Shown here: positions 13,296 to 38,765 of the stretch, piece by piece
How the letters are laid out: every line of letters begins with the position of its first letter
Position numbering within the stretch: position 1 is the first letter of the stretch
Source of the DNA: Fistulifera solaris
Lineage: Eukaryota
Assembly: GCA_030295235.1 (NCBI GenBank)
Contig: AP026125.1
Span: 496,001 to 560,000, forward strand
DNA: 64,000 nucleotides
Reading direction: 5' to 3'
Program-made: the position numbers and the translations under genes
The notes under the pieces: model-generated
Database searches by the model: none
Told to the model about the DNA's origin: nothing
What the model saw: the letters and a program-made list of their open reading frames with translations, nothing else

Positions 13296-15564
13296 ATAAT
13301 CAAATGCCATGGAAATATTACAACTTCATTCAAAACGCAACTATTTGCGTCGAAAAGCATCCGTATCGTCGAGTGCCATTTTCACTATGATGGTAAAGTG
13401 TTGGTTGTACGCGACCGCGACTAAATTTCAGTCACATCAACATAAGGAAACGATGTTGAAACGCCACCAAAGTTGTCCACAAACAAAAGCGCGAAGTGTA
13501 TAATCAAATGCCGTGGAAATACAAATATATGAACTAACTATCATCTTCATTCGAAACGCAACTATTTGCGTCGAAAAGCATCCGTATCGTCGAGTGCCAT
13601 TTTCACTATCATGGTAAAGTGTTGGTTGTACGCGGTCGCAACTAATTTTCAGTCACGATCAACATAAGGAAACGATGTTGAAACGCCACCAAAGTTGTCC
13701 ACAAACAAAAGCGCGAAGTGTATAGTCAAATGCCATGGACAATACCAATATATGAACTAACTATCATCTTCATTCAAAACGCAACTATTTGCGTCGAAAA
13801 GCGTCCGTATCGTCGAGTGCCATTTTCACTATGATGGTAAAGTGTTGGTTGTACGCGACCGCGACTAATTTTCAGTCACGATCAACATAAGGAAACGATG
13901 TTGAAACGCCACCAAAGTTGTCCAAAAACAAAAGCGCGAAGTGTATAGTCAAATGCCATGGAACTACCAATGTATGAACTAACTATCATCTTCATTCGAA
14001 ACGCAACTATTTGCGTCGAAAAGCATCCGTATCGTCGAGTGCCATTTTCACTATCATGGTAAAGTGTTGGTTGTACGCGACCGCAACTAATTTTCAGTCA
14101 CGATCAACATAAGGAAACGATGTTGAAACGCCACCAAAGTTGTCCACAAACAAAAGCGCGAAGTGTATAATCAAATGCCATGGACAATACCAATATATGA
14201 ACTAACTATCATCTTCATTCAAAACGCGACTATTTGCGTCGAAAAGCGTCCGTATCGTCGAGTGCCATTTTCACTATGATGGTAAAGTGTTGGTTGTACG
14301 CGGTCGCAACTAATTTTCAGTCACGATCAACATAAGGAAACGATGTTGAAACGCCACCAAAGTTGTCCACAAACAAAAGCGCGAAGTGTATAGTCAAATG
14401 CCATTGAACTACCAATATATGAACTAACTATCAACTTCATTCGAAACGCAACTATTTGCGTCGAAAAGCGTCCGTATCGTCGAGTGCCATTTTCACTATG
14501 ATGGTAAAGTGTTGGTTGTACGCGACCGCAACTAATTTTCAGTCACGATCAACATAAGGAAACGATGTTGAAAACGCCACCAAAGTTGTCCACAAACAAA
14601 AGCGCGAAGTGTATAATCAAATGCCATGGACAATACCAATATATGAACTAACTATCATCTTCATTCAAAACGCGACTATTTGCGTCGAAAAGCGTCCGTA
14701 TCGTCGAGTGCCATTTTCACTATGATGGTAAAGTGTTGGTTGTACGCGACCGCGACTAAATTTCAGTCACATCAACATAAGGAAACGATGTTGAAACGCC
14801 ACCAAAGTTGTCCACAAACAAAAGCGCGAAGTGTATAATCAAATGCCGTGGAAATACAAATATATGAACTAACTATCATCTTCATTCGAAACGCGACTAT
14901 TTGCGTCGAAAAGCATCCGTATCGTCGAGTGCCATTTTCACTATGATGGTAAAGTGTTGGTTGTACGCGACCGCAACTAATTTTCAGTCACGATCAACAT
15001 AAGGAAACGATGTTGAAACGCCACCAAAGCTGTCCACAAACAGAAGCGCGAAGTGTATAATCAAATGCCATGGACAATACCAATATATGAACTAACTATC
15101 ATCTTCATTCGAAACGCAACTATTTGCGTCGAAAAGCGTCCGTATCGTCGAGTGCCATTTTCACTATGATGGTAAAGTGTTGGTTGTACGCGACCGCGAC
15201 TAATTTTCAGTCACATCAACATAAGGAAACGATGTTGAAACGCCACCAAAGTTGTCCACAAACAAAAGCGCGAAGTGTATAATCAAATGCCGTGGAAATA
15301 CAAATATATGAACTAACTATCATCTTCATTCGAAACGCAACTATTTGCGTCGAAAAGCATCCGTATCGTCGAGTTCCATTTTCACTATGAGGGTAAAGTG
15401 TTGGTTGTACGCGGTCGCGACTAATTTTCAGTCACGATCAACATAAGGAAACGATGTTGAAACGCCACCAAAGTTGTCCACAAACAAAAGCGCGAAGTGT
15501 ATAATCAAATGCCATAAAAATACCAATATATGAACTAACTATCATCTTCATTCGAAACGCAACT
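13296..15564. repeat. Satellite array A: 10 near-identical units of 221-224 bp
   Basis: Anchor GTGTTGGTTGTACGCG at 13398, 13619, 13842, 14064, 14287, 14509, 14733, 14954, 15177 and 15398. Confidence 0.97.
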
Positions 15565-15762
15565 ACGATCCATAACAACGAGGTCCAAAGTTTCTTGTAG
15601 TTGATGCACATAATTTCTATGAGATGAAAACACCCAGTCCAGAATTTCTGGAACATTCACAGAATTTCTGGAACATCCACTGAATTTCTGTAGGACGAGA
15701 TCGCGACTTTCAAAATTCCTGGAAACGTACACAGCAACGCTGTTCGTTGAGAAACGCACCGT
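15565..15762. repeat. Satellite family B unit (right flank of array A)
   Basis: GATCCATAACAACGAGGTCC...GAGATGAAAACAC..GTCCAGAATTTCTGGAACATTCACAGAATTTCTG matches the family B unit. Confidence 0.85.
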
Positions 15763-15894
15763 TGACCATTGATTTATTGAGGATATAATAAAGCGGAAGG
15801 CAATGAGATATTAATTAATTGTGCTTCTGCGTTTACCTTAACTAGCAATACATCACTTTCTTCCTTTCATCGACAATTAAAGAGCACAAGAAAG

Positions 15895-16308
15895 ATGGGT
15901 ACCGATAATCCAGGCAACATAATGGCTTCTGCCGTGGACGCAGAAGTCACTAAATTCAAAGTGCTGCAGCAAGAAATCACCAAATTTCGATCTGATCTTC
16001 AATTCGTTTTAGGTCAGAGGACAGAAAATGAAATGGTACAACAAGAATTGGATTTAATTGGGAACGATGGAATTGTGTATAAACGAATTGGCCCGGTACT
16101 TCTTCAACAGGAGGTAGACGAGGCTCGACAAACGGTGCAAAAGCGATTGGAATTCATTCAATCGGAAATTGACAAAATGGAATCAAAGATTGCCGCAAAA
16201 GAAAAAGAAGGAACCGAGATTGCTGTCAAAGTACAGCAAATGCAATCACAACTACAGCAGGTGACGGCGGAGGCAGTACGCGCCATTGCCGAACAACACG
16301 GAAAATAA
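15895..16308 (+). CDS. PFDN6: Prefoldin subunit 6
   Basis: QRTENEMVQQELD...VYKRIGPVLLQQEVDEARQTVQKRLEFI. Confidence 0.92.
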   Translation: MGTDNPGNIMASAVDAEVTKFKVLQQEITKFRSDLQFVLGQRTENEMVQQELDLIGNDGIVYKRIGPVLLQQEVDEARQTVQKRLEFIQSEIDKMESKIAAKEKEGTEIAVKVQQMQSQLQQVTAEAVRAIAEQHGK

Positions 16309-16352
16309 AATTATACAGAGTTTACAAGCTGTGGATGTAATCATTCTTATAA

Positions 16353-18784
16353 TTAATCTGAATCATCATCGGACCAATCCACTCCTTCTTGAACAGCATC
16401 ATCCTCTTCCAAGGCTTTCTCGTCAATTGGTGCTTGCGGCGTCTTCGTCTTTTTCGACTTTTGCTTCTTTTTCGTCTTCGGCTTTTGCGTCGGAGCATCG
16501 CCTTGATCGTCATCTTCATCGCTTTCTTCTGCCTTCGTGGGTCGTTTCTTTTCTTCGGCTACCCGATTTTCTTTCATTCGCTCGTCGAGTAATTTCTGCT
16601 CCCTCTGAACCGACTCGTCATGACGGTCTCTCATTGTCTTCATCGATGTTGGACGAAGACATTCTAGTTGCTGAATGTCCTTGGGTGATTCTTGTAGTTT
16701 TTGCCGGGCTTGTACAGCAAACGCCGAATACTTTTCACATGTTTCGATACAGCCCTTGGCCATGGCACGCCATCTCGGTTGACGCGACGATTCCTTGGAA
16801 AAGGTACGAAGACGCTGGATAATGCGACTCGAGTATTCGGGAAAACCGGCTGAGAAACGGTACAGTTCAATGTCGCGATTCAGCAAGACAAAGAAGGCAT
16901 TCATACTGGCCTGCATTTGCTCGTGAGTCCGTAACGCATCTTCTTTGGATCCAAGCTTCAATATCAATTCCATTTGAGGCGGATTTTCAGCCTTCTTCGT
17001 TTTCTTCGGATGCAAATACCACTCTTTCAAGTCGAGCGACTCTAACAGAAGGGCACTTGTCGGAATGAAGGTCTGTGAAAATGCGGCTAATTGCTGAAGA
17101 AGCCGAATGCAATGAAACCGATACGGTAAGTTTCGTGTGGGAGAAGGAGTGAAGCGAAGGGTGCCCATAATAACTTCGGTCAAGGGATAAATCAAGGAGC
17201 GCATCAATGAATCTTCTTCAATTGTAGAGTCGCATAAGACAGCAACCCAGAGCTTCAGGCAGTGAAGATATTGCCAATGATAAACTTGTTGCATGGCTTC
17301 CTTCGTCTTCTTGTGCATCGCCGTACGAAGAAGCAAAGCCAATTGACGAATGTACACAAATGCATGCTGATACGATGAGTGGTGATCCAAGCTGTACAAT
17401 TCACAAAGGCAGTTGCCCATAAAGGTCAGAGTAGGAAGGACGGAAGAAACAGAGGCTCCTGTCCCAAATTTGGCTCGCTTGGCATAGGCAAGGTACGTCT
17501 TTTTCAATATATCTTCGATAAACGGAAATGGCTGAGTCAAAGCTAATTGCCGAATGCGGAGAAATGCATTCAATCGCACAACTTGGTACTTTTCAGAAGT
17601 ATCCAGTGGTGCTGACCAGAGTGCAGTCAAGCTCTTGAGCATGGCCGACGCTAATCGGGGAAAGGGCGTTAAGTAGCGATTCAACTTCGCCAATGCTTTC
17701 AACACAAACACTAGTAAATCCGGTTCCTTCGCTTCTGACATGACGTGAAGTGTTGATTTGAAAAACGACTGGATTATAAGGCGGAGTTGAGGCCACCTTT
17801 CGGCTTTTTCAAGAAGTTTGGGGTTTAAAGGCTTATCGTCTTCGACGGTCGCTTCTTTGTCATCTTTTGCAGGAATTATGTCGTTCGTTTCCTCCTTTTG
17901 TTCGGAGCGCAGCAAATGATAATGAAATTCTTCGTGAATTCTATTCAAACACAAGAGCATCAGTTCATCAAATATCTTCGACGAGTCGATAATGTAAGGG
18001 CTACTCCCTTTGTCCTCGTCGGCTGCATCGGAAAGATGACAAGCAGCCTTGTACGCCACCACCAGCTTCTTGAGACTTTTCAATCCGTGGGACTTAAATG
18101 TTCCTTTTCCAAGGACGCAAGGACACTAGCAGTGAGATGAACTTTGTCATTTCCTCCCTCGTCGTCGCCATCATCATCTTTCATGTCGTCGTCGTCATCG
18201 TCGTCATCGCCAAACTCCAACAGCGACTCCTCATTTTCCTTCAAAAATTCATGAAACTCAGGATCTGCCTCTTTCATTTTAGCCATTTCAATTTTCATTC
18301 GCTCTTCAGCCGCATCAAGGTCTTCGTCGTCGCTATCGTCACTTTCTGACGAGTCACTCTGCTGATTCTTTGACTGCTTCAACCCTTTCTTTCCGGATTT
18401 ATCTTCCGCCATAAAATCGTCCTCACTCTCCGAATCGCTTGCGGAGTCCTCATTTTCCGAGTCATCGGCAGCGTTTGACTTCTTCTTGTCCAACTTGTGT
18501 AGAGCATCACCGGCAACATCGCCCGGCAGGGTGTCAGTAAGCTTTTCGAAAAAGCTATCAATATCCAAGTCCCCCAAATTATTGTCACCAAGAAAATCAT
18601 TGGGTCTAGACTGATTTCCCAAGGGCTGCTGTTCCGACGCTGTCGACTTTTCCGTACGGCCCGCCGTGCTCTTTTTCTGGCGTTTTCGTGGTTTGCCTTT
18701 CGTGGCCATACCGCCTCGTTCCAGTCGACGCTTTACCCCTCCGGACGCCTGAAACTTGCGTTCTCGCTTAGTTGGTTTCCCCAT
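16353..18784 (-). CDS. NOC2L: Nucleolar complex protein 2 homolog
   Basis: MGKPTKRERKF start, KEADPEFHEFLKENEESLLEF, YQHAFVYIRQLALLLR, VYHWQY..CLKLW and LIYPL motifs. Frameshift in the T run at ~18105-18108. Confidence 0.9.
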
Positions 18785-19119
18785 GATTTCGCAAATTAAT
18801 TGTCACTAAACCTTTTGCCGACTGGGAAAATAGATTTTTTTGGTTGGCTTTGAAAGAAAAACTCCACCCGTGTACCGACGGACACCAGACGATCACTTTA
18901 CTCTACATCTAAAGTGTAAGATTACTTTTCCACGACTGAGTACCAGTCATGAATCATGGTACTGTCAACTAATCGCTAGCTTTGCAACCTCTGTTAAAGG
19001 ACGCGAATCAGCACTAAGCATTATCAATTCACGCCTCGTATTTGCACCGATAAGCCGTGGGGAATGTTGTGCATACACACTCCCTCGGCCCACAACTTAA
19101 TGAGAGCGTCAATGACTGT

Positions 19120-20172
19120 GAATTATTTCTGGAACATCAACAGAATTTCTGTATGATGAGATCGCGATTTCCAGATTATCTGGAATTCGCACTGAAACGC
19201 TGTTTGTTGACAAACACCGAGTCCAAACTTTCTGGAAATAACATGGAACTTGTATGATCCATACCTAGTAGCAAGGATGTCGAACGTTTCTTGAACGTCC
19301 ACATAATTTCTGTGATATGAAAACACTTGGTCCAGAATTTCTGGACCATCCGCAGAATTTCTGTATGATGAGATCGCGGTTTCCAGAATTTCTGGAATTT
19401 ACTGTGAAACGCTGTTTGTTGAAAAATAGCGTGTTTTGTATGATCCATTACAACGAGGTCGAACGTTCCCATAATTTCTGTGCGATGAAATCACCTGGTC
19501 CAGAATTTCTGTATGATGAGATCGCGTTTTCCAGAATTTCTGGAATTTACTGTGAAATGCTGTTTGTTGAAAATACCGTGTCCAGACTTTCTGGAACTTG
19601 CACGGAATCCTTGAATGATCTTAACAACGAGGTCCAACGTTCCTTGAACGTGCACATATTTTCTGTGAAATGAAAACACTTGGTCCAGAATTTCTGGACC
19701 ATTCACAGAATTTCTGTATGATGAGATCGCGGTTTCCAGAATTTCTGGAATACTGTGAAACGCTGTTTGTTGAAAATACCGTGTCCAGACTTTCTATAAT
19801 TTGCACGGAATCCTTGTATGGCCCATTATAGCAAGGTCCGACGTTTCACGAACGTCCACATAATTTCTGTGAGATGAAAACACGTGGTCCAGAATTTCTG
19901 GACCATTCTCAGAACTTCTGTATGATGATGAGATGGCGGTTTCCAGAATTTCTGGAATTGAGACAGAAACGCTGTTTATTGAAATATCCCGTATCCAGAC
20001 TTTCGGGAATTTGCACGGAATCCTTGTATGGCCCATTATACTGTAACGAGGTCCGACGTTTCTTTAACTTCCTCATAATTTCTGTGAGATGAAAACACGT
20101 GGTCCAGAATTTCTGGACCTTCCACAGAATTTCTCTATGATGAGATCGCGTTTTCCAGAATTTCTGGAATTT
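19120..20172. repeat. Satellite array B: ~5 diverged units of ~205-210 bp (one internally deleted), rich in the palindrome TCCAGAATTTCTGGA
   Basis: Anchor AAA(C/T)GCTGTTT at 19195, 19407, 19555, 19758 and 19967. Several TCCAGAATTTCTGGA copies or variants per unit. Confidence 0.92.
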
Positions 20173-20356
20173 TTACTCAGTTCACACTCAACTAACTCTT
20201 TCTTCATCATGCTCCTAATTTGAACATATTTATTGCTTATTATTATCAATTAGGCACACACACACAGCCCCTTCACTGAAAGAAGCTTTTTTCGCTATTT
20301 CACCGGAAGATTTGTTTGCCCAATTCGTCGCGAGTGAGTGAAGAAAAGCACATAAA

Positions 20357-21502
20357 ATGAGACATCGATGTCGGAAGCTTGCCGCTTTTCTTATTCTACC
20401 TACCGGCGTGGTATCATCATTCGCTGTGCCGGTGTATTTTGATTCAACCAATCATTTCCATCGCGACTTACAGTACCATCCCGAGCAACCAGAACGCATT
20501 GCGGCGTGTCTTCGGGAATTGGAAAAACATCATCAGAGGAATCCTGGAACCGTTGACCTAATTGATGTTGCAGAAGCACCTTCTGGTTCATTTTCGAATA
20601 CTTCGCACACACACGATGGGTTTTCGGCGGCGGAATTATCTCACGTGGAAGCGATGCTGCTCAAAGTTCACACCGAAGACACTGTTGTGCAGTTGAAACA
20701 GCGATGCCACCGATCCAAGCAGAAACGACTGGACGAAGGAAAACCCGCATTGGGTCATATCGGCTATTTGGATTCAGATACTTACGTGACTACAGAAACA
20801 TACGACGTTTGCTTGCGAGCGACGGCGGCATGGTTTCGTGCGGCAGATTTTGTTTGGAAGAATGGCGGTGGTGCCATGGCCCTGACCCGACCACCGGGAC
20901 ACCACGCTACCCAGAGCGAATCAAATGGATTCTGTCTTTTCAATTTTGCCGCTGCTTCCGTTGCTCACATATTAGAAAGAAATCCGAGCGCCAAAGTGAG
21001 TGTGCTGGATTGGGATGTCCATTACGGTCAAGGGGTAGCCAATATTTTGATGGACGAACCACGGGCACGGTATGTCTCAATCCATCAGCATGGCGCGTTT
21101 CCTTTCATGGGACAAGTCCTCAAGACCCATGGAGAGCATAACAATGTGCTAACTATACCCATATCGCCCGATACAACATGGAACAGTGGATACAAAGATC
21201 GCTTCGAAATGGCCCTCGATTTTATTTGCAAACAAAATGAGTGGATACCGGACATTGTCATCATCTGCGGTGGTTATGATGCTCTCAAAAGCGACGAATT
21301 AGCCAGCGTGGATCTAAACTCTGAAGACTATGGAACAATGACGGAATTGCTGATTCGACATTTAAAGGCAAGTGCAGGGAGGGAGGTTCCAAAGATTATG
21401 GTAGGACTAGAAGGAGGGTATCAACTGAGTCCTACAGCCGCTGGTGGGAATTTACAGGACGCAATCATTGAAACAGTTAAAGCAATTTCTAGTATCAAGT
21501 AG
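20357..21502 (+). CDS. Zn-dependent histone deacetylase family protein, likely plastid-targeted
   Basis: HPEQPERI, RPPGHHA, GFCLFN, LDWDVHYGQG and LEGGY motifs. The N-terminal signal peptide ends VSS-FAV. Confidence 0.9.
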   Translation: MRHRCRKLAAFLILPTGVVSSFAVPVYFDSTNHFHRDLQYHPEQPERIAACLRELEKHHQRNPGTVDLIDVAEAPSGSFSNTSHTHDGFSAAELSHVEAMLLKVHTEDTVVQLKQRCHRSKQKRLDEGKPALGHIGYLDSDTYVTTETYDVCLRATAAWFRAADFVWKNGGGAMALTRPPGHHATQSESNGFCLFNFAAASVAHILERNPSAKVSVLDWDVHYGQGVANILMDEPRARYVSIHQHGAFPFMGQVLKTHGEHNNVLTIPISPDTTWNSGYKDRFEMALDFICKQNEWIPDIVIICGGYDALKSDELASVDLNSEDYGTMTELLIRHLKASAGREVPKIMVGLEGGYQLSPTAAGGNLQDAIIETVKAISSIK

Positions 21503-21721
21503 CTTGCGGTCACACATTTTGCAACTGAGGTTTGAGTGTTTTTTTCCTTTGAAATGCGGCTCCCTTAGTAGGTACAGTACCGGTGCGAACGCGGTTGATT
21601 TTTAGGGCGACACGCGATGCGAGATGCGATGCAGGCGACAAACTTCCTTCAATTGCGATCAATAATAATATCTTTTGCGATTTCTGTCAGCTGTAAAAAG
21701 TCTTTATCCATCGTAACAAAA

Positions 21722-23334
21722 ATGGATTCTAGCGATTCGTCTTTGTCGACCGACAAAAGAAGCGACGGAAGTCATCAAAGAGTCGAAAGCGGGAGGAGCG
21801 CAAGCCGTGGAAGAGGCGACGATCAGATTACGACGATGATTCTACTTCTTCCAGTGACGATGACAGTTCCTATCGAAGATACCGAAAGAGAGAGAGAAAA
21901 GAGCGAAAGAAACACAAGAAGGACAAAAAGAAAGTGAAGAAAGAAAAGAAGAGGGCTAGTAGAGACGAAGACGACTCCAGCTGTGGGGAGTCCGACCCTT
22001 TACACAGAAATTATGAGCTAGCGGATGCTCTTTTGAACATGCTGGAAGGCCACCCTGCGCTAGTTGAAGACTTTCCTATTATGTTGATTCGATTAGCAAG
22101 CGGAACTACATTTGATCTGAGCCAAATGTCGGACCAAGATGCCGCCCATTGCCTTGCACAAGTCTTCACCAAGTTACAACCATTCGGCGTGACGAAAGAT
22201 CATGCCGGTGCCTGGTGTTGGGAAGGAGGCAGTCGCTCATCGAATCCTACTCACAACGAGCAAATCGTTCTGGTGAAGCTGGTACGCGCCATGTTGGATC
22301 AAATAGGTTTCACTATGCAGGCAATTGAGCGTCACGATAATCCGGATATTCCTTCCGCCGCCGAAAGGGTTCAGACCAACAACACAACGGAAGAGATAAC
22401 TTACATGACAGCAGGTACATTACGAGAATTTAAGCCAGAACTGGCGCAGGAGCTAGCGGGCCTGTGTCGAATGATATTAGACGGGGAAAGTATTGCTCTG
22501 GATGGTCTCGAGGATGATCGTCTTCGCAACGCTCTTGAGTATATTTTCAAGGAATGCGGACTAGAGAAATTAGAGATGGAAAATGACGACAAAGAAGACG
22601 ACGACAGTGTTGCATTTGGTTATGGTCTCCCACAGGCTGCTAACGAAGAGTCAAAAGCGAGAATACGTTGTGTGATGCAAACCTGCGAGGAAACAGCGCA
22701 AAAACCTATTGTTAAAGGCCCTTTGAAGCCACCGAGTTCCTACACAAACCAGGTGGATGCCCTCTATGATAATTCCGGGTCTTCCGACGAAGAAGGTCCT
22801 GCCATGGTAGGATCCGCACGACAAAACAAGGGTCTATCAAAAGACCTCGTGGCCGCCCAAGCCGCTTTACGCAGTCGCCAGCTCGCGAATGCAAAACAAG
22901 GCATTGATGTCTCCACCGCGGAAGCAATGGAGGGACAATCACGAGAAGAATGGATGGTCGTACCGGGTAAACAATTCGATTTTTTAAGCGCCGTCAAGGC
23001 GGGCAAACCTATGACAAGTCGAAAATTCGGCGCCCAAAGCAAAGTAGATTTAGCAAAGCAAGGCGAATCGATTCATCCGTCGATACAAGCCGAGATCCAG
23101 GCCATCAAAGAAGCCCACGAAGAGTCGCGTGGTCCTTCACTGATGGAGCAGCATCGGGAGAGAAAGTTACAAGAACAGGCAGAAGCAGCCGCTTCTGGAA
23201 AGAGCGAGTCTTGGAAATGGAATCGCGAAAAAGATCTCGATTCGGGAAGACGTGTCGACAAAGACGCCTTGGGTATGATTCTGGGTAGTGCTGGCACTGA
23301 ATTGAAGTCCAAATTTCACGGCGGCTTTGGTTGA
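21722..23334 (+). CDS. DUF3752/GPALPP1-like protein
   Basis: C-terminal REEWMVVP, GPSLMEQH, WNREKDL and LKSKF motifs. The K/R/D-rich N-terminus joins the main ORF if one A is added at ~21754-21758. Confidence 0.7.
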
Positions 23335-23367
23335 TGCGGCATCACATGTTAAGAAAAATCATTCCAT

Positions 23368-27436: not shown

Positions 27437-27524
27437 TGATGCAATCGGAAAGACTGCTTACAAACACACTTCTTTCAGTAGATTTAAATTATCCAAGGCT
27501 AGCATTTCTTATGTGTAGTGAGTA

Positions 27525-28093
27525 TCAATAGCTACTATACGTGAAAGGGACAGGTGGCCATTTCGGCGGATCGTAACCCTTCCCTCCAATAGGAGAACAC
27601 CGCAATAACCTCCAAGCAATCAGTATAACTCCTTTCTCTGGCCCAAATCGTTCAATGGCCTGCACGCCGTATTGCGAGCAAGTAGGAACGAAACGACAAG
27701 CGGGTGGAAGGAGCGGTGAAATGAAACTTTTGTAAACGCCCAAAACGGATATCATGGCAGTGGAGGTCATATTCTTTTGGCGTTTGTCGCTCTCTCCTTT
27801 CGATGCATCATCTTCTGGTACGGACTCGTCGGATTCCGTGTAAAATCTATTCCTCGCCACATGGGGGCATTGTGATGCAGCACGAGCCATCACAGCACCC
27901 AAAGTAGCCACAGTAACCAAAGTGTTTTTTTGCAAAATCCTTTTGTAATGGTTAAACCAAGCAAAGCGTGCTTTCCCCGAGAAACATCGTGTCGAAAAAG
28001 CACCGGCCACGGAGTGCACACCTGACAGCCTTCCGCAAGCCACAGCAGTGCATTGCAGAGCATTACGAAGATTGTTAAGCGCATAGCTCCCAT
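27525..28093 (-). CDS. yidD: YidD-type membrane protein insertion efficiency factor, organelle-targeted
   Basis: YKSFISPLLPPACRFVPTCSQYGVQAIERFG..KG..LIAWRLLRCSP.GGKGYDPP. The signal-peptide exon starting at 28093 joins through a frameshift near 27925-27945. Confidence 0.85.
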
Positions 28094-28677
28094 GCTATTC
28101 TTGCTAAGAGATAGTTCGGCAAAGAAAAGAAGCGTTCATAAGTAGCGTATGATGCTCACAACATAATCGCATCGATTATAATTGCAACAAAAACGAAATA
28201 CTGAGTAATACGGAGTAAAAATAAAAAGTTGCAATGTCTCGTGACTGAAATCGGCAGTCATGAAAACGGACAATACTTATTTATTCGGTACTATAGTATA
28301 CTTTAACCTTGAGCTAAACGATCCGAGAGATTAAGCCTTTGACGAACCCAAAATATCCTACAAAAGAGCCCAACAATGCCATCCATAAACGATAGAGAAA
28401 ACAGAAGTTTTACAAAAATACGGACTTGAGACGCACAAGGGACAATAGAAAGTGGGGCCTTGAGTTAGTTTACGCGTGACTGAGTTGGAATTCAGTCGTG
28501 ATAAAAAAAGTAGGCTACATTTTGGATCACAGTGCATTTCGTACGCGGCAAAAAAATGGCGGGAAATAAAAGAAGGCGGATCGAATCGAATGAATGTCAA
28601 CGACGAGTGTTATAATAAAAATATCATTTATAAATACAATTGGGGATATCGTTACGAAGAAAACTGTTATCAGTTCA

Positions 28678-29431
28678 ATGTTTTCTGCTGCTTTCAATCA
28701 CCAGACGGTGATTTCCGGCACCAGGCTTTGTTGTCGCAACCTGTCGACCAAGCCCCTCCGAGCGTATCCGGTGTACACTGTCTACGGTGCTGATTGCTAC
28801 TTCAACCTCAAAGTAATTTTACCCAAGTTTCGGACACGCAACAATGTGCTCTCAACGGATGGCTTTTCGCAATATGGCAGTCTACTTTTGAATGGGTCCT
28901 CGCGGAAGCGACGGTAAGTTCGGCTTACTGTCGATCCGCTTTTCGAATCAATGCTTCGGCTAGATCTCACTTTTAAATTGTCTCACTGAATATATATATA
29001 TGTACAGGAAAAGGCATTCCCGATAAAAGTCTACGTTTCGCTCTTGCTCCCCAAGAGGCTGGATTGCTGATCGATCAGCAACGGAATGAAACGGTCGAAT
29101 TTTCGCGGACCGGCTTTCCCCCGAATGTCGTCGACAAAGTCTTTCGGGTCAGTCCACACGAAGCCGGGGCCTTCCAATTTTTGATCGATTATGAAAATGA
29201 AGGCCGTGGTGGTCAGAGTCCCTCGGATCGTCCCGACTTGGAAGGTATAGCTCCGCTCGGAATCGTGCTTCAGCGCGGCGAGTACGTGGTTCTCCGCGAG
29301 CTGATGCGGAATTCAATTCCCACGATAGCCAACTGGGACTATATGCTGAAAATGCAAGTCGAATCTGCAATCACTGAAGCTTCCAAAAGTCCTTTCCAGA
29401 CGATAGCTCGCCGTATGAAGTGCCTTTTTAG
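28678..29431 (+). CDS. Whirly-like single-stranded DNA-binding protein, probably mitochondrial
   Basis: YPVYTVYG...P.F...GSLL(F)EW...LRFALAPQEAG...DKVFRVSP...LQRGEYVVLRELMRNSIPTIANW parallels the plant Whirly pattern. Intron 28914-29007; frameshifts at ~28886 and probably ~29392. Confidence 0.6.
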
Positions 29432-29717
29432 TTGGGTGACAAAAATAATGAAATACTTCAATGTCGCGTTTTACTCGCAATGCTTCTTTTCAATATTTTC
29501 AGATCTATCATTACCATCTGTTTGTTGCGCGATTTGTAAAATATATCAGAATTTTCATAAAAAGCTAATAGTATGGAGTAGTTCCTTTTATTCAATTCTT
29601 CTTCTCGTTCTAGTTTCTAGAAATCGTCGAAACCCGATGCGATACTGAGCGGAGATACTAAAATAGTAGAGACGACAAAGATTCAAGATATTCAACACGG
29701 GGGGAAGGAAGTTAAAA

Positions 29718-31363
29718 TTGTGCCTCTCAGTACAAGTTTCTACGTGGAGCCTACGGCGAGGCAGAATTTTAACGTCGTCTCCGGGATTCTTCACGGTCAT
29801 CACAATACCTGGTAGGACGTGTGCTCGCGTGCCTCTTCGTTGCCTCAATAAAATGCCATCATCGTTTTATTACAACGCACGAACTTTTACAAAAAGCGTT
29901 CGTTGATTGCAAAGCAACATGCGAGAGAGATCTCAGCTGGGAATACCACAACAACAAGATGTGGAAAAGGGAGTCGCGTTCAAGTAATGAAGAAGGACAT
30001 CTTCTTTTGGCGGGCCAAATCATTTCACGGCTAGCTCGATTTTCCGAAATTTTCTCGCGTCGCAACGAAATTTTGGAAACTCTTGTAAATACAATTGAAA
30101 TGGGTGACTTGCTTGTACTTGTAGCGCTCGGGTGGCTTACTATTCCGGTTGTACGAGTCATTTATACATTTTATTACGCGCAGTACGACCAAGCAACGAA
30201 AGTGGTGTCTTTGAAGAAGCCTATCAACGTTCAACCCATCAAAACGGAAGATCAGCACGACGCTCCATCGTCACAAAACCCACAACAAGAGGCCACGGAC
30301 GTCTTTTTTCTCATCCACGCCATTTTACATCGCTAACTTGGCTACAGAAGTATTCCAGCGAGCTTGCCTTGTCTATTTAATCGATTGTCTGGTGATCGTT
30401 GCGGACATTGTCGACCCCCGGCTGGATATTGCGCATCACGAGCTGAGTCTCAAGTTTGCCAAAATAATATACTCTGTATGGGCTGCTACTCGACTGATGG
30501 CTTTCAAGAGATACTTACTTTGTTTGGCGGCCAAGCGTCCGGAGACAAAATTGGGCAAGGTTGGCCTCTACGATCGCATATTGGACATTTTGATTCTGTT
30601 CTGCCTCATTCTTGCGATATTGGACATAATTCACGTAGAAGTAGGCCCGGGATTGGCTTCTCTTTTTGCTTTTGGAGGCGTGGGAACGCTGGTTTTGACA
30701 CTGGCTTCGAAGGATCTGGCGCATCAACTTGTCTGTGGAGTGGTGGTGTCGACTTCGGAAAATTTTTATGTAGGCGACCATATTCGACTGGGTAATGATA
30801 CACGAGGAGCAATCGATTACATCGGATGGTTGTATACGGATGTTCGTGGTAAGTCAGTGGCAAGCGTTTGCAAATAACACGCTCCCTCATTTGGAGCAGC
30901 TTCTCATTCGCCATTCTGTCGTCTTGTCTATCAAGGATACGATGAAGTTACCACCCGCATACCAAATGAGCAGTTTGCAAATCGAAGAATATGTAATATT
31001 TCACGGCATAACCGTTGTCAAGTGAAGCAGTTGCTTCGTGTGAAACATTCCGATTACAAGAAGATACCTGCTTTTTGCACCGACGTTTTGCAAGAAATTA
31101 AGCTTCAATGCCCGGAAGTGATAGCCGATGGATCCCGTCCTTTTCGAGCTTTCCTTAAGGATATCAAGAGTGACCATTTGTCTGTTGTAGTCGACGCTCG
31201 GTTCTACCTCCCCGCCATCGGGAAACGGTACGATAACAATCGAAACAAAGTATTGTTGATCATTTGCCAAGTTCTTGAAAAGCATGAAATTTCTTTGGCA
31301 ATACCGTCTTTTGCAGCTGGAAGCTTGGACGATGGGCAGCCAACGACCCTTCTAGACGATTGA
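29718..31363 (+). CDS. MscS-family mechanosensitive channel (start uncertain)
   Basis: LFAFGGVGTLVLTLASKDLA...FYVGDHIRLG...IGWLYTDVRGYDE...IPN motifs. Intron 30849-30935; frameshift in the T run at ~30304. Confidence 0.85.
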
Positions 31364-31613
31364 CGATTGAACAGCTTGTACACACTGTGTCATAAATACA
31401 ATCAATGTTTCGATTTAGGCTTCCTGCCTTTTGCTGTAAACAACTGCTAGTATTTGATGAACAAGTCAGCAATGAGCAACAACGGTACCGAAGGAGTTTT
31501 AGTTTGAGATGTGAATATTCGAATAGACAGGTGCCGTGATTGAACTAAATTCAATGCATGTACTTGTAAGCGTTTCGTCGTCTCTCGTCTCTCTAGAAAA
31601 AACCAAAAAGTAG

Positions 31614-31703
31614 CACCGAATGTGGGGCTTGAACCCACGACCACACGATTTCACTAGGGATAAGTCTAAGAGTCGTGCGCTCTACCGACTGAGCAAATTC
31701 GGC
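31614..31703 (-). tRNA. trnK-CTT: tRNA-Lys(CTT) with a 17-nt intron
   Basis: GCCGAATTTGCTCAGTCGGTAGAGCGCACGACT-CTT-A[GACTTATCCCTAGTGAA]ATCGTGTGGTCGTGGGTTCAAGCCCCACATTCGGTG. It forms a full cloverleaf with the intron at the canonical 37/38 position. Confidence 0.93.
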
Positions 31704-31835
31704 TAATAATTTCGCACAACGAATTTATGCTACACAAACAAATAGATAATGAAAAGTGCAGAGCTAAAAAACACTTTGCTTGCTCAATGCGGCTACGTTG
31801 TGTTTACATCAGATAACACAAGTTTTCTTAGCTCA

Positions 31836-33366
31836 TTAAAGTTCAGTGTGGAGCTCTTGTGTTACCGAGGGAACGTTTTCTTGAACCATCTCCACTTCCG
31901 CGGGGTGTGACTCATCGTATCTGGGCCTCACTTTTTGATTCGCGGAAGTACTGGTTCAATCATTTCCCAAGGTGTTTGCTTCTCTGGCGGGACGAAACCT
32001 AGCGATACAAACCAATCGAGTGGAGAATAATGGGGTACATTGTAGTTGGCAAGTAGCTCTTGTCCCACCTTGAGTGCTTTCCTTCTTCCGTGTCGAAAGC
32101 TCCGGACGACAAATGTTCCGCTATCATCTTCGGTTGCATCAATAAAGTGACCATTTTCTATCCGCTCTCTTCCTGTCAATTCAATGAATCCAGCCGCACT
32201 TTCATCATGATTGATTTGATCAACCATGGGAATAAGACGAAGCGTTCCATGTTTCTCCGATCCCGCCGTCGCCCGCGATGCGACTTGACAGAGGGCCCAG
32301 GCAATGTTGTCGGCTACGGATTTGTCCGAAGGTGTTTGAATGTAGGGTCCGTAATCTTTCGTTAACGCTTCCACGATCGTTTCCGCATAGGCCGTAGCTC
32401 GCGACAACTCTTCCGACCATCCTTCCGTCGGAACACCGAGTTCTTCGCGCAAGACGGCGAGCGCGTCGAGCATATAGGGTCGTAGATTTCTCGAATAGCC
32501 ACAAGACGGTTCCGGAGGCAATGATGCTATGTACGGCATCCATCGCGAATATCGACCCACTCCGCGTTCATGAGCCAAAAGAGAACCAAAATGATGGCAT
32601 CGTCCAACTCCGACATGCCGGCTTTGACTTGCACCTCTGCAGGAATGAGTGGCAATAGCACTTCCAGCGCTTTTGTTCGAGTCATTTGATAATTCAGAGG
32701 CACGCGTATGAGAATCTCTTCCTGTTTGAACTTGGGCTCCGTCGGTAAAGGATACGTTACGTTGTTCTCCTTGTAAAGCCAACGTTCGTTTTTCACACGT
32801 TCTTTCTCTTCCGCACGCCCCGGCAGACACCCCTTTTGACACTCGTGCCATCCATTCCGGACCATACCGATCCCACGTGCCGCCCCACAGGGTGCAGGAA
32901 CCAAAAATCCCAAATCGGGATGGACAAATCCGCCGGGTTCTCGGACAATCGCTTCCCGCAATACGGCAAACACGCGCGGATGCGCCGGATTCGATGCATA
33001 GAGTTCCACTTCCATATCACGTTGCATACGAGCCACCCAATATCCTATTCGGTATTGTACTTCTTCCCAGGCATCCGTTTCGAAGGAAAGAAGACGAAAC
33101 GAAGTGGTCGACCGCAGACGATTCGCGAGTTCTTGTCGCCACGGTTTGACTTCGGAAGAAAATTCCAGCCACCCCGTCCCGATCAAAAATCCAAATAAAA
33201 GTCCTGTCAATATGCATCCACCAACCCAGAGATAAGCTCGACGATCTTGGGCCAACCATTGTCGTAATGTAATAGTCGGTGCGCGGTGTTCGTCGTCGGT
33301 TGTGGGTGATAGCGACGACTTGGTGGGTGATTCGTTGCTGCTTTTTGGCTTTTTATTCTTTCCCAT
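31836..33366 (-). CDS. SET-domain (Rubisco LSMT/SETD3-like) protein with an N-terminal TM helix
   Basis: ARGIG, ILIRVPLNYQMT, SRWMPYIASLP, WALCQVASRA, LIPMVDQINH and GQELLANY motifs. Frameshift at ~32577. As assembled it stops at 31928, but one added A extends it to ...ELHTEL* at 31836. Confidence 0.8.
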
Positions 33367-33740
33367 CTCGTGAGTAAAAAGAATTATACAGCTAGTACTT
33401 ATAATAGTGTGCTAAATCCGTTTTTGTTGATAAGCAAGGGATAATGAAGGCAATGAAGGCATTTGCTTTCCTTGTCATCGTTCTGCTCGATAGTGCTGCC
33501 CGTGCAAAAGCCTGCACGACAATACCCCGAGTAATTATTTTCTCCCTCCACATTCCGATCGACGCACCGGTACTTGTACAGATACGGATCCGGTACCGTA
33601 TCGATAATATAGAGGCCCCGCATACGTAATCTCTGTGTGCTCTGTAACGAAATCGACGGACTCTAGATTAGAGCGATGATGCAGTTCGTCGACTTTAATC
33701 TATGCAAAAACAACCAAAACATCAAAATTTATATACTGTA

Positions 33741-35273
33741 TCACTTAGATCGCTGCCGGACTGCTTCTAAAAATACTTTCGTCATGTGTTCAATGTCCTT
33801 GGCAGTTTCAACTGGATTCCGCTTCCCTGTAATACCTGTAGCCCGTCCCACCCACACGGGTGTCATCAGGCACGTGTCCGAAAACTCATTATGGGAGATA
33901 TCGGGGATACTTTTACATGCTGAAATACCCGAATCGGTACCTAATCGCTTTCTGGCATACATCTCTTCGAGGGCATCGGATCCAGCCCACTTCTTATCGC
34001 GCCATTCTTGAGAAAACAAGATCAACATATCTTTCTCATGAATCGAACCTTCATCACCCGCTGGCACAAAGCCCTCATATCCACCCGTACCTCCGTGCCA
34101 GGAATGGTCGAAATCTTGCAACAACGTCGGCGAAAGCAACGAGTGTCGTGCATCGTCCGGCATCCAATCGACCGCTGGTTCGTGTGCGACAACGGCAGTC
34201 ACTAAATCCGGTCGTCGTTTCCCCGCCGTCAAAGCCGTTGCTCCTCCAAAGGAATGCCCCATAAAGAACGTTTCCGATTTCGATAAACGTCCTCGGAATG
34301 AAATACCGAGACCGGGAATGTCGTGTTGATCCATGTGGTGAATTGCCTCGACGGCCGCAATGAATTCCTGCACGCGATGATCGGTCCGGCGCCTTCGTTC
34401 TTTCACGTAATCGAGGTGCTTCTCTTCTAAAAGCAATTTCGCGAGTTCAAAATCGTAATGCAGTTCCGTGCCGTTGGACAAGGCCACGACGGGCGCACTC
34501 CGATCTTGATGCGTCAACACGAGTACCACATATCCCTGCGAGGCCAGTGCCATGGTCTGATACGAGTAAACATCGGCCGTTCCACCCAGACCGTGGGAAA
34601 ATACCACGATCGGTAAACGTCGGTCCAGTGGAAGCAGCGTCGCGTTCGGTTTGGCTGGAATGGACGCCAACTTCCAGTGGTGCAACATCCAACCGTGCGA
34701 CTGGAGTGGTGGCGGAGCCCCAAATTGCATCATTTTTCGACAATACTCGTCCGCCAGAGAAGGATTTAAATAAGGATACTGTCCCGGAGGATCCAGTGTG
34801 GGAAAGAATAATTTGACGGGCAATTCGGAATGCGATGTGCACGTCGTGTTGTCGTCGGAAAAGTCGACCGGTAAATGAAACTCTCGAATTCCCACCCGGT
34901 ACGGTCCATCGGGTGATGGTATTTGGACAGCTGGTAGGAGTATGCAGAGGACGGCGGCTAATACAACGAACGAAAAACCCAAGAAGCCCAACAATCCTCG
35001 GCTCCAGCCGAAGCGCGAGAAAAGTGGTATCCGCCGCAGCAATTGAATGACAATGAAAGGAATCATTGGCAAACTTATACTCCATCGTCCCGTCGGTCCA
35101 CATGTGAACAATAAAAACCCAAAAGAAAAGAGTAGTACGTAAAGATTCGATGTCGTACGAATGCTGGTGAAGTTCACGTACAGCATGCACAAAAGCGTGT
35201 GCAGATCAATCGCAATGTGCCGAGGGATCGGCTGCAATCCACCAATCATTTTGGAAACCAGAGAAACAATCAT
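33741..35273 (-). CDS. PAF-acetylhydrolase-like alpha/beta hydrolase with N-terminal TM segments
   Basis: PDGPYRVG, PIVVFSHGLGG, LASQGYVV...HQDRSA, GHSFGGATA and HNEFSD motifs. Confidence 0.88.
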   Translation of the reverse strand: MIVSLVSKMIGGLQPIPRHIAIDLHTLLCMLYVNFTSIRTTSNLYVLLFSFGFLLFTCGPTGRWSISLPMIPFIVIQLLRRIPLFSRFGWSRGLLGFLGFSFVVLAAVLCILLPAVQIPSPDGPYRVGIREFHLPVDFSDDNTTCTSHSELPVKLFFPTLDPPGQYPYLNPSLADEYCRKMMQFGAPPPLQSHGWMLHHWKLASIPAKPNATLLPLDRRLPIVVFSHGLGGTADVYSYQTMALASQGYVVLVLTHQDRSAPVVALSNGTELHYDFELAKLLLEEKHLDYVKERRRRTDHRVQEFIAAVEAIHHMDQHDIPGLGISFRGRLSKSETFFMGHSFGGATALTAGKRRPDLVTAVVAHEPAVDWMPDDARHSLLSPTLLQDFDHSWHGGTGGYEGFVPAGDEGSIHEKDMLILFSQEWRDKKWAGSDALEEMYARKRLGTDSGISACKSIPDISHNEFSDTCLMTPVWVGRATGITGKRNPVETAKDIEHMTKVFLEAVRQRSK

Positions 35274-35399
35274 GTTCGTGATCTTATCAGTGAATGTTGT
35301 GAAAACGAATGAATCATAGTTGTGTGAGCAACAAGAAAAGAATTCGTCTTGGTTCCCTTGCTATCATTTTCCATCGTCGTCATCGATCGAGGGCGAAGA

Positions 35400-35792
35400 A
35401 TGAGTTCTCACGTTTCCCGAAAATCTGGGGGTGTGTTGCTTTGACGTGTCCCGAAAATCTGGGTGAGTGCTGTTGTCACGTGTCCCGACAATCTGGGTGA
35501 GGTGTTGTTCTCCGTGTCTCGAAAATCTGGGCGAGTGCTGTTCTCACGTTTCCCGAAAATCTGGGGAAGTGTTGTTTTCTTTGTCCCGAAAATCTGGGCG
35601 AGTGCTGTTCTCACGTTTCCCGAAAATCTGGGGGTGCGTTGTTTTTTTTTTAAAAAAAACCATAATCTGGGCGATTGTTGTTGTCAAGTGTCCCGAAGAT
35701 CTGGGTATCTGTTGTTTTCACATGTCCCAAAAAAATTTTGCGGGTGTGTTGTTTTCACGTGTCCCGAAAATCTGGGCGAGTGTTGTTTTCAT
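35400..35792. repeat. Minisatellite C: ~11 units of ~34 bp around CCCGAAAATCTGGG
   Basis: TCACG(T/G)TCCCGAAAATCTGGG..GTG(C/T)TG is repeated with a ~33-35 bp period immediately before array D. Confidence 0.92.
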
Positions 35793-38765
35793 GGCTCTTG
35801 CGAAACGTTGTGTGCCTTATTATTTTACTACTATGGACCCGTGGACTGCATTTCAGTCATGAATTAATATTCTTTTGCGACGGATGTTACCTACAAGTCG
35901 TTCGATCGCCCAGTTTCTTGAGGTTTATTTGTCACTGTTGCAGTAAAACAGTCTTCAACAGTGTTGGCATTATAAGTCACTAGCCGCCTTCGGCGTCTAT
36001 TCGAGGGCTTTTTTTCGTTCTCGCCCTTCCCGCAAGCGGGGGGCTCGATCCCCGGAGATAGCGTCACACCCGTGATTTGGACACCCGGGAGCGCGTTACG
36101 TTACGTGACACACACACACACGGACACAGCGCGCTATTATAAATAGATAGATAGATTATATTTACGTCGAAAAGCCTTGCGAAACGTTGTGTGCCTTTAT
36201 TTTACTATATGGACCCAAAGTGTTGGTTTACGAAGACCACGACTGCATTTCAGTCACGAGTCATGAATTTAATACTGAGTATAATATTCTTTCGAGCGAC
36301 GGATGTTACCTACAAGTCGTTAAATCGCCCAGTTTCTTGGGCTTTATTTGTCACTGTTGCAGTAAAACAGTCTTCAACAGTGTTGGCATTAAAAGTCATT
36401 ATATTTACGTCGCAGAGCCTTGCGAAACGTTGTGTGCCTTATTTTACTATGGACCCAAAATGTTGGTTTGAATCAATATTCTTTCGAGCGACGGATGTTA
36501 CCTACAAGTCGTTAAATCGCCCAGTTTCCTGAACTTTATTTGTCACTGTTGCAGTAAAACAGTCTTCAACAGGGTTGGCATTATAAGTCATTATATTTAC
36601 GTCGAAGAGCCTTGCGAAACGTTGTGTGCCTTATTTTACTATGGACCCAAAATGTTGGTTTGAATCAATATTCTTTCGAGCGACGGATGTTACCTACAAG
36701 TCGTTAAATCGCCCAGTTTCCTGAACTTTATTTGTCACTGTTGCAGTAAAACAGTCTTCAACAGGGTTGGCATTATAAGTCATTATATTTACGTCGAAGA
36801 GCCTTGCGAAACGTTGTGTGCCTTATTTTACTATGGACCCAAAGTGTTGGTTTACGGAGACAACGACTGCATTTCAGTCATGAGTCATGAATTTTTCAAA
36901 AAATATAATATTCTTTCGAGCGACGGATGTTACATACAAGTCGTTAAATCGCCCAGTTTCTTGGGCTTTATTTGTCACTGTTGCAAAGAAATTTTTTCAA
37001 TTTTACTCATTGGATTTACGTCGCAGAGCCTTGCGAAACGTTGTGTGCCTTATTTTACTATGGACCCAAAGTGTTTGTTTACGGAGACAACGACTGCATT
37101 TCAGTCATGAGTCATGAATCAATATTCTTGCGACGGATGTTACCTACAAGTCGTTCGATCGCCCAGTTTCTTGAGCTTTATTTGTCACTGTTGCAGTAAA
37201 ACAGTCTTCAACAGAGTTGGCATTATAAGTCATCATATTTACGTCGAAGAGCCTTGCGAAACGTTGTGTGCCTTTATTTTACTATGGACCCAAAGTGTTG
37301 GTTTACGGAGACCACGACTGCATTTCTGTCGTGAGTCATGAATTTTTCAAAAAATATAATATTCTTTCGAGCGACGGATGTTACCTACAAGTCGTTAAAT
37401 CGCCCAGTTTCCTGAGCTTTATTTGTCACTGTTGCAGTTAAACAGTCTTCAACAGTGTTGGCATTATAAGTCATTATATTTACGTCGAAAAGCCTTGCGA
37501 AACGTTGAGGGCCTTATTTTACTATGGACCCAAAGTGTTGGTTTACGAAGACCACGACTGCATTTCAGTCATGAGTCATGAATCAATATTCTTTCGAGCG
37601 ACGGATGTTACCTACAAGTCGTTAAATCGCCCAGATTCTTGGGCTTTATTTGTCATTGTTGCAAAGAAATTTTTTCAATTTTACTCATTAGATTTACGTC
37701 CGAAGAGCCTTGCGAAACGTTGTGTGCCTTTATTTTACTATGGACCCAAAGTGTTTGTTTACGGAGACCACGACTGCATTTCAGTCATGAGTCATGAATT
37801 TTTCAAAAATATAATATTCTTTCGAGCGACGGATGTTACCTACAAGTCGTTAAATCGCCCAGTTTCCTGAACTTTATTTGTCACTGTTGCAGTAAAACAG
37901 TCTTCAACAGGGTTGGCATTATAAGTCATTATATTTACGTCGAAGAGCCTTGCGAAACGTTGTGTGCCTTTATTTTACTATGGACCCAAAGTGTTGGTTT
38001 ACGGAGACCACGACTGCATTTCAGTCATGAGTCATGAATCAATATTCTTTCGAGCGACGGATGTTACCTACAAGTCGTTAAATCGCCCAGATTCTTGGGC
38101 TTTATTTGTCATTGTTGCAAAGAAATTTTTTCAATTTTACTCATTAGATTTACGTCGAAGAGCCTTGCGAAACGTTGTGTGCCTTTATTTTACTATGGAC
38201 CCAAAGTGTTTGTTTACGGAGACCACGACTGCATTTCAGTCATGAGTCATGAATTTTTCAAAAAATATAATATTCTTTCGAGCGACGGATGTTACCTACA
38301 AGTCGTTAAATCGCCCAGTTTCCTGAACTTTATTTGTCACTGTTGCAGTAAAACAGTCTTCAACAGGGTTGGCATTATAAGTCATTATATTTACGTCGAA
38401 GAGCCTTGCGAAACGTTGTGTGCCTTTATTTTACTATGGACTTAAAATGTTGGTTTACGGAGACCACGACTGCATTTCAGTCATGAGTCATGAATTTTTT
38501 TATAAAAAATATAATATTCTTTCGAGCGACGGATGTTACCTACAAGTCGTTAAATCGCCCAGTTTCTTGAGCTTTATTTGTCACTGTTGCAGTAAAACAG
38601 TCTTCATCAGCGTTGTCATTATACGTCATTATTTTTACGTCGAAGAGTCTTGCGAAACGTTGTGTGCCCTATTTTTCTATGGACTATGGACCCAAAGTGT
38701 TTGTTTACGGAGACCACGACTACATTTTAGTCATGAATCAATATTCTTTCGAGCGACGGGTTACC
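35793..38765. repeat. Satellite array D: 13 modular units of ~190-245 bp
   Basis: Anchor GCGAAACGTTG at 35800, 36179, 36422, 36614, 36806, 37033, 37256, 37497, 37712, 37952, 38167, 38408 and 38652. Confidence 0.97.
35980..36155 (-). mobile_element. 176-bp non-autonomous mini-Helitron
   Basis: The minus strand begins TCTATCTATCTATTTATAATAG and ends with the CGCCGAAGGCG hairpin, G, then CTAG. It sits between A and T of the array motif ATAAGTCA|TTATATTTACG with no target-site duplication; the empty site is visible in neighbouring units. Confidence 0.88.

Follow-up and report, generated by a model that had tools for sequence, protein, structure and literature searches.

A dispersed ~57-bp module, putatively a protein-binding site, recurs in two young satellite arrays of the hybrid diatom Fistulifera solaris

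The window, a 64-kb stretch of Fistulifera solaris DNA, contains two satellite arrays, A and D, which are young subfamilies of an old intergenic repeat of ~220 bp, every unit of which bears one ~57-bp module. The genome of this hybrid diatom is allopolyploid, and its two parental subgenomes provide a built-in homoeolog control. The module is older than the split of the parental genomes and persists at dispersed sites, and the arrays amplified mostly in one parent. A and D behave as ordinary young euchromatic satellites and the sister subgenome lacks them, so the dispersed module, rather than the arrays, is the object of interest. The module most likely serves as a protein-binding site. We put the chances at about even that the whole is explained by dispensable satellite bursts of a unit with an older, constrained, putative protein-binding module. 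The arrays and one example core from each are as follows.

13294..15565, plus strand: array A, ten ~222-bp units plus ~67 bp; the homoeologous chromosome lacks it
13786..13881, plus strand: example A core (box I 13828-13832, box II 13839-13845, palindrome 13860-13881)
35797..38765, plus strand: array D, 192-244-bp units; the homoeologous chromosome lacks it
37932..38030, plus strand: example D core (box I 37977-37981, box II 37988-37994, palindrome 38009-38030)

The ten cores of array A are spaced 221-224 bp apart with 95% matches, and array D has 12 anchored units at intervals of 192-244 bp, preceded by a broken one. An earlier note on this DNA had claimed that the two arrays share a colinear core and differ in the remainder of the unit, and alignment bore this out. 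The A core (96 bp) and the D core (99 bp) were identical at 74 of 100 columns, with a local score of 64 against 14.3 ± 2.3 for 1,000 dinucleotide shuffles (z 21.8), whereas the remainders did not align beyond shuffles in any of six comparisons covering both orientations (z -1.2 to 1.3). Uniform divergence over the whole unit, which the note had set against its own reading, was not seen. Each array was internally homogenised, as had been proposed: core identity was 0.94-0.95 within arrays and 0.86-0.88 between them, and both were monophyletic in unit trees, which overall recovered 11 of the 16 A arrays and 6 of the 7 D arrays as monophyletic. The GC content of the arrays was 38-41%, compared with ~46% in the surroundings. 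CpG decay, a sign of methylation, was not seen in the arrays, CpG transitions being no commoner than other C/G transitions (0.083 versus 0.122 for A; 0.077 versus 0.118 for D). Array boundaries fell at many phases and lacked common flanks, which gives no support to the suggestion that the core is a rolling-circle origin; many arrays ended directly after the palindrome.

The constrained part of the core consists of ACTAT (box I), 4-6 nt, AAAGTGT (box II), a spacer of 13-14 nt (spacer 2, between box II and the palindrome), and the palindrome CANGACTG-N5-CAGTCAYGA. A weaker box lies ~40 bp upstream, and the 5' CGTCGAAAAGC block of the core is less conserved and is missing in many single copies. 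The ~95-bp core described previously is real as a shared sequence, but strong conservation is confined to its 3' ~57 bp. Since both arrays were amplified from the same recurring three-box module, their cores would be alike by descent.

A genome scan for further core-bearing loci found 1,083 exact palindromes (control, 0), present as singles, as dimers, and in arrays with a ~221-bp period, and 472 sites with boxes I and II (control, 6). When loci were chosen on boxes I and II alone (26 distinct loci), the palindrome was present in 21, compared with 4 of 364 controls; in 20 of those 21 it lay 13-14 nt downstream, and its arms were 93% identical. The unit period was 203-236 bp (5th-95th percentile, 188 links), and tandem copies were all head to tail. 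Ninety-nine non-redundant remainders fell into a D-like group (53), an A group (27), and others (19). Modules occur at a density of about one locus per 18-22 kb, are intergenic (none of 37 classified loci lay inside predicted coding DNA), and by extrapolation would number some 2,000 loci. The sharing between A and D is genuine, but the pair is not special: both are genome-wide families, with some 31 loci of A and no fewer than 12 of D among the matches listed, and the window itself holds six further single or paired module copies. Exact-pattern searches, over sequences among which near genomes may be missing, found no true copy in other organisms and no match in viral sequences; a single metagenome match was judged to be chance because box I was missing. 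Literature searches listed no description of the module. The further modules and repeats in the window are listed here.

12775..12879, minus strand: old single module; the homoeologous site keeps the module
12990..13293, unstranded: left piece of a B-family repeat that is split by array A; TTCCAGAA-T-TTCTGGAA palindromes, ~51/204-bp period
15566..15752, unstranded: right piece of the same B-family repeat
18874..18952, plus strand: old module; the homoeologous site keeps the module
19100..20170, unstranded: B-family array; absent from the homoeolog, where a degenerate second module was seen by eye
28236..28548 (28236-28342 + 28471-28548), minus strand: old module dimer; the homoeologous site keeps the module
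35404..35791, plus strand: C-family 34-bp repeat adjoining array D
35980..36156, minus strand: Helitron-like insert of 177 bp within a D unit, an unrelated passenger
40501..40534, plus strand: partial module (palindrome only) within a block absent from the homoeolog
48129..48212, plus strand: old single module; the homoeologous site keeps the module with a different spacer type

The 177-bp insert has a 5' TC and a 3' hairpin followed by CTAG, which we take to be Helitron end features, and sits between A and T.

Comparison of the subgenomes separated the arrays from the modules. The A and D arrays were absent from the homoeologous chromosome at five of five sites, and old modules were kept at 10 of 14 homoeologous sites and lost or broken at the other four; loss of single units from dimers was also seen. 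In 11 homoeologous module pairs, picked by hand from sites where both copies survive and possibly affected by conversion, the boxes and arms matched at 283 of 311 positions (0.91), compared with 7,512 of 9,350 (0.80) at four-fold sites, the neutral reference. Neutral simulations with detection bias gave 0.80-0.82 and reached 0.91 in none of 2,000 runs per setting; at the most pessimistic bound on that bias (0.896) the excess in the boxes was not significant (P 0.24). Together with the palindrome and box counts, the difference between 0.91 and 0.80 supports the proposal that a module under constraint has been amplified repeatedly. Spacer 2, at 0.70-0.72 identity between homoeologs, was less conserved than neutral DNA and switched between family types, so selection on the boxes alone is insufficient as an explanation.

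Among the functions that had been suggested for the core, a protein-binding cassette fits best, and we infer a composite site on double-stranded DNA at which a dimer would occupy the palindrome and a second factor boxes I and II. Purifying selection would act on the module, which would work whatever the orientation of the genes, as a chromatin-organising or enhancer-like intergenic site. The ~164 bp between modules would, judging from length alone, fit one nucleosome. The arrays may have spread via unequal exchange or circles followed by microhomology-guided insertion into existing repeats, and would be dispensable. In line with such insertion, array A splits a B repeat with a 7-of-8 microhomology at its left junction and 2 bp of overlap at its right.

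The main rival, possible if unlikely, is that the module is instead a break-prone site, or one recognised by a nuclease or recombinase, at which a break falling between box II and the palindrome would be mended by ectopic gene conversion from other copies. Conversion would refresh the boxes, swap spacer types, and sometimes admit satellites or delete the module, so that the boxes could be conserved without any benefit to the host. Consistent with this, in 14 of 16 cases spacer 2 resembled a copy at a non-homoeologous site more than the one at its own homoeologous site (6-7 in neutral simulation, P ≤ 0.007), although the test comprises 8 pairs of ~14 nt, one of them probably mis-cut, and a doubled mutation rate raised P to 0.14. 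An identical multi-base spacer switch of the same polarity was found at two separate loci and in part at a third. Where the window has its B-A-B block the homoeolog carries an intact module, so that a whole module was replaced. At another site a D-type trimer splits a module. Among six arrays found independently of module sites, however, two lay on a homoeologous module (one by eye) compared with about 11% of gaps, which was not significant.

We consider it rather doubtful that an old non-autonomous transposon of the MITE, Helentron-like, or SINE-like kind, with tandem units inside it, supplied the module as its cis-element, in which case the copies would be relics and the boxes selected just while the element moved. 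About 15 D-type loci open with a common head sequence and have mostly unrelated flanks, one head plus trimer is present in just one homoeolog, and many arrays stop right after the palindrome. Nevertheless, the copies had neither terminal repeats in common nor a consistent target-site duplication, and no fixed 3' end or coding partner was found; in some copies similarity continues beyond the head on its upstream side, and the boxes stay conserved above the neutral rate after insertion. Read by eye, the sequences flanking 26 arrays and about 15 loci with the head gave no terminal inverted repeats or target-site duplication of the MITE kind, apart from one possible 4-bp duplication at one site. 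Helitron/Helentron-type ends were absent from A and young D arrays; old D-type copies share the head, and a few a hairpin tail, but no common terminus. A tRNA-derived SINE or Pol III type 2 gene gained no support, as the arrays showed an A-box-like start only (by eye) and no tRNA match.

The asymmetric boxes, their fixed spacing, the TATA-like look of box I, the initiator-like TCAGTC, and the head-to-tail copies would also suit a directional promoter of a small transcript of its own (snRNA-, Pol III-type, or rDNA spacer-promoter-like), with tandem copies as spacer promoters, but we judge this very unlikely. With crude gene calls, the module had no fixed orientation or distance relative to coding genes: among 34 loci with both flanks called, the downstream gene start was sense in 24 and the upstream one antisense in 23, at scattered distances. 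Convergent gaps held 2 of the 34 loci compared with 16% of gap bases, an enrichment near gene 5' ends that was not significant (P about 0.08). Box I lies ~42 nt from TCAGTC, which exceeds the usual TATA-to-start spacing. No B-box match was seen by eye, and the DNA downstream of single copies is unrelated from locus to locus.

A replication-origin mark or centromere-protein binding site would accord with the intergenic spacing and low GC of the repeats and with the conserved boxes that mark Meloidogyne centromeric repeats as described in PMC8097292, yet it seems highly improbable. There are many module loci per contig, and the account of Phaeodactylum ORC sites in 10.1101/2024.07.07.602421 describes them as having no common motif. 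The F. solaris centromere/ARS motifs described in 10.1101/2021.11.10.468027, which belong to a genome of the same kind, are likewise dispersed and AT-rich and share a short CGACTGAATTT word with the module, but they lack detectable homology to it and are concentrated on the other set of contigs. In scoring that covered motifs 1 and 3, their copies fell within or at the edge of shuffles: the two genomic copies spanning both motifs scored -10.1 and -0.2 (shuffle maxima, 0.6 and 1.8), compared with 28-59 for true modules. One motif copy sits in the tail of a D-type element.

We find it scarcely credible that the core acts as a small structured RNA or a ribozyme and was amplified in the manner of retrozyme satellites, which have a comparable unit length and short dispersed arrays. 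The palindrome does fold as a hairpin, with a slight advantage for the minus strand (median z -1.5), but seven of its eight pairs show Watson-Crick pairing no more often than column make-up predicts, so covariation is lacking, and one of the pairs reads C-A in 61 of the 95 copies. RNAalifold gave no consensus structure on either strand, and single-sequence fold z-scores ranged from -1.5 to +1.1. Rfam at the gathering score returned one tRNA only in the whole window, and scanning array D and 10 loci at relaxed thresholds gave two chance hits (E > 1). An RNA-like sequencing run (X7), which passes over an intron-like piece, extends over two genes nearby but over neither the single module nor the first core of array A, and is uninformative on expression; another run (X5) gave two short contigs, neither on the module.

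As dispersed euchromatic satellites, A and D consist of head-to-tail non-coding units, at many loci, with homogenisation and rapid lineage-specific turnover. The accounts of Drosophila Rsp-like/1.688 (PMC7403614) and Tribolium Cast1-Cast9 (PMC11610590) describe similar short arrays in gene-rich DNA, lineage-specific bursts, and local homogenisation. Rsp-like is reported there to have inserted in 1.688 at microhomology, and array A is likewise a young satellite within an older unrelated one. In contrast to the satellites so described, the diatom unit bears a multi-box module that also occurs as single copies conserved at orthologous sites. The Meloidogyne libraries described in PMC3694981 and PMC8097292 similarly combine divergent monomers of different families with short conserved boxes, for which a part in protein binding or recombination was proposed, and here too the boxes are conserved and the rest of the monomer diverges; the single box of 17-19 bp described there differs from the three diatom boxes, which have fixed spacing over ~57 bp and are dispersed, often single, and at most putatively linked to centromeres. 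The Caenorhabditis CERP2/CELE2 m1m2 pairs, described as bound by HIM-17 (10.1101/2022.01.21.477252), are thousands of repeat-borne motif sets with defined spacing, part of which are preserved between genes at orthologous positions, and by analogy may be a model for how the module works. Conservation of the diatom motifs at orthologous sites was above neutral (11 hand-picked pairs, possibly affected by conversion); compared with the system described, the module lacks MITE terminal repeats, and its binding protein and promoter activity are putative.

Returning to the protein-binding module, we consider it possible, if unlikely, that it is a sequence-defined, genome-wide site at which a complex of diatom proteins opens or cuts DNA, with spacers swapped by ectopic conversion; such a site would seed satellite insertion and amplification, organise intergenic chromatin, and drive repeat turnover differently in each hybrid parent. 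The lineage can take up episomes, as described in 10.1101/2021.11.10.468027, and with more than 1,000 module copies and the homoeolog control the module is directly testable. If the transposon relic were the true explanation, this would be an ordinary repeat family. Few sequence-defined genome-wide DNA elements are, to our knowledge, known in diatoms, and the module would be a case of a constrained site that seeds new satellites in one hybrid parent.

The two tandem-repeat arrays of the window that have a core in common both lie between ordinary genes of the 51.7-Mb, 62-contig genome, array A beside GTPase and prefoldin genes and array D beside PAF-acetylhydrolase-like and TPR genes.

Window 13294-15565, array A: ten cores, spacing 221-224 bp
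Window 35797-38765, array D: unit length 192-244 bp

The A and D cores were identical at 74 of 100 aligned columns (local z of 21.8, 1,000 shuffles), whereas the remainders, meaning the rest of each ~221-bp unit, gave z values of -1.2 to 1.3 in the shuffle test. These results confirm the earlier note's description of a common core joined to unrelated sequence, and uniform divergence over the whole unit was not found. Three paralogous TPR-containing genes (window 38894-42936; 70-80% identical, one inverted) adjoin array D, and the homoeolog lacks ~6 kb here, with two of the three genes in it. A tRNA gene at window 31614-31703 (-), detected by Rfam but not by ARAGORN, has a short insert beside the anticodon, a probable intron; the homoeolog keeps the gene with a different insert sequence.

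Genome searches yielded further core-bearing arrays, as had been anticipated, with at least ~31 A loci and at least 12 D loci among the matches listed. Core identity was 0.94-0.95 within arrays versus 0.86-0.88 between them and remainder identity 0.85-0.89 versus 0.73, a comparison biased toward the core since most loci were retrieved using it; monophyly held for 11/16 A arrays and 6/7 D arrays, in line with the separate homogenisation already proposed. The ends of 26 arrays fell at many unit phases with no common flanking sequence. Neighboring modules were separated by a median of 221 bp (5th-95th percentile 203-236 bp, 188 links), and 99 non-redundant remainders comprised a D-like group (53), an A group (27), and others (19), with zero matches to the D-like profile among A remainders. 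From this pattern we infer that the D-type form is old and widespread and that A is a lineage which carries a different remainder. A dispersed ~440-bp repeat (L076:2363-2800, on another piece of the genome) lies beside a D array and has 14 further copies (73-93% identity).

Judged from sequence, constraint falls on a ~57-bp module and not on the whole unit. Of 313 profile hits, 257 were used and reduced to 104 non-redundant copies. In these, most columns of box I (ACTAT), box II (AAAGTGT), and both arms of the palindrome CANGACTG-N5-CAGTCAYGA carried 1.2-1.9 bits, and columns of the spacer before the palindrome (spacer 2) carried 0-0.8. The strict palindrome occurred 1,083 times in the genome (control, 0) and boxes I+II 472 times (control, 6). 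To avoid circularity, the first 30 box I+II matches were taken and four rows from already counted arrays removed; the palindrome was found at 21 of the remaining 26 loci (control, 4/364), 13-14 nt downstream in 20 of the 21, and at loci so selected the arms were 93% identical. Twelve module loci were present in 264 kb of contiguous DNA and nine in 160 kb of the homoeolog, extrapolating to roughly 2,000 or more genome-wide. A literature search, with most subscription papers outside its reach, found no published description of the module.

Because the genome is a hybrid, its two halves serve as an internal control. The sequence contigs include two haplotypes ~10% apart; the window lies on contig C5 (496001-560000), and its homoeolog is on contig C6. 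Arrays A and D were absent from C6 at all five sites compared; old single or paired modules were present at 10 of 14 homoeologous sites, partial at 1, and absent at 3, a count that leaves out one non-alignable locus. In 11 homoeologous module pairs chosen by hand, boxes and arms matched at 283/311 positions (0.91), four-fold sites matched at 7,512/9,350 (0.80), and identity was 0.82 for aligned non-coding DNA and 0.70-0.72 for spacer 2. Neutral simulations with detection thresholds gave 0.80-0.82 for the boxes and arms, although the excess of the observed value was not significant against an extreme bound of 0.896. Odd contigs held 24/26 A loci and all 11 D loci (contigs up to C26, among the matches listed); the equation of parity with subgenome is shown for C5/C6 only. 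The palindromic repeat families B and C (window 12990-15752, 19100-20170, and 35404-35791) are one-sided too: CCAGAWWWTCTGG occurs at 13 sites along 150 kb of C5 and at none along 147 kb of C6, and both B arrays occupy positions where C6 carries a second module.

The fixed spacing, the dyad symmetry without covariation, and the conservation at orthologous sites fit the protein-binding cassette suggested earlier, with binding itself putative. Because of these three features, we give about even chances to the module being a composite site on double-stranded DNA, putatively protein-bound, that would act irrespective of gene direction. No module among 37 loci fell in predicted coding DNA, and by crude gene calls the 34 loci with both flanks called had a downstream sense gene start in 24 cases and an upstream antisense gene start in 23. 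The closest working model is the m1m2 motif pair to which HIM-17 binds in Caenorhabditis MITEs (10.1101/2022.01.21.477252). No common transposon ends were found, so the module is not assigned to that class; a head sequence is common to ~15 old D-type loci, and one D-type head plus trimer occurs in C5 only, being absent at the homoeologous site.

A live but rather unlikely rival is ectopic conversion at break-prone sites, which could by itself maintain the boxes, and it draws on spacer 2 family-type switching and on arrays that sit at module positions. Divergence of spacer 2 exceeds the neutral rate, yet each of the two homoeologous versions stays family-like; a copy's spacer was nearer a non-homoeologous copy than its own homoeolog in 14 of 16 cases versus 6-7 in neutral simulation (P ≤ 0.007, from the 8 pairs, out of 11, in which the spacer could be delimited, one of them probably wrongly), but P rose to 0.14 once the mutation rate was doubled. 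An identical multi-base spacer switch of equal polarity was seen at two loci, a B-A-B block is located exactly at a whole-module position of C6, and a D-type trimer splits another module; however, among six arrays found irrespective of modules, only 2 sit on one. The spacer 2 result is evidence against a simple selection story.

Other identities fared worse. Identity with the published centromere/ARS motifs of F. solaris (10.1101/2021.11.10.468027) was rejected by comparison with genomic copies of motifs 1 and 3. The exact motif 3 word has 94 sites in the genome (up to 11 per contig; 73/76 on even contigs, for contigs up to C26), a number that points to F. solaris or a close relative as the source; motifs 1 and 3 sit within a short ~70-bp element, two copies of which (G000:C6:500419-500438 and one on piece L158) are identical; this element resembles an interspersed repeat, young and specific to one subgenome, more than it does a centromere signature. 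The module was also rejected as a core promoter of the adjacent gene, crude gene calls placing starts on either side at ~30 bp to 3 kb, and the small structured RNA once proposed was abandoned, as scans of the window, array D, and 10 loci assigned the module to no Rfam family, the module had no consensus fold, and the palindrome lacked covariation (one pair was C-A in 61/95 copies).

Array A interrupts a B-family repeat. At the left junction the A and B repeats match in 7/8 positions, and at the right, where the B position is the same, they overlap by 2 bp; the arrangement resembles Rsp-like in 1.688 (PMC7403614). Satellite bursts in gene-rich DNA are also reported for Tribolium (PMC11610590), and boxes common to unlike units recall the divergent Meloidogyne satellites (PMC3694981 and PMC8097292). 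The best reading makes arrays A and D ordinary satellite bursts. The module itself is real; it is either under constraint or being actively refreshed, and its function is putative.
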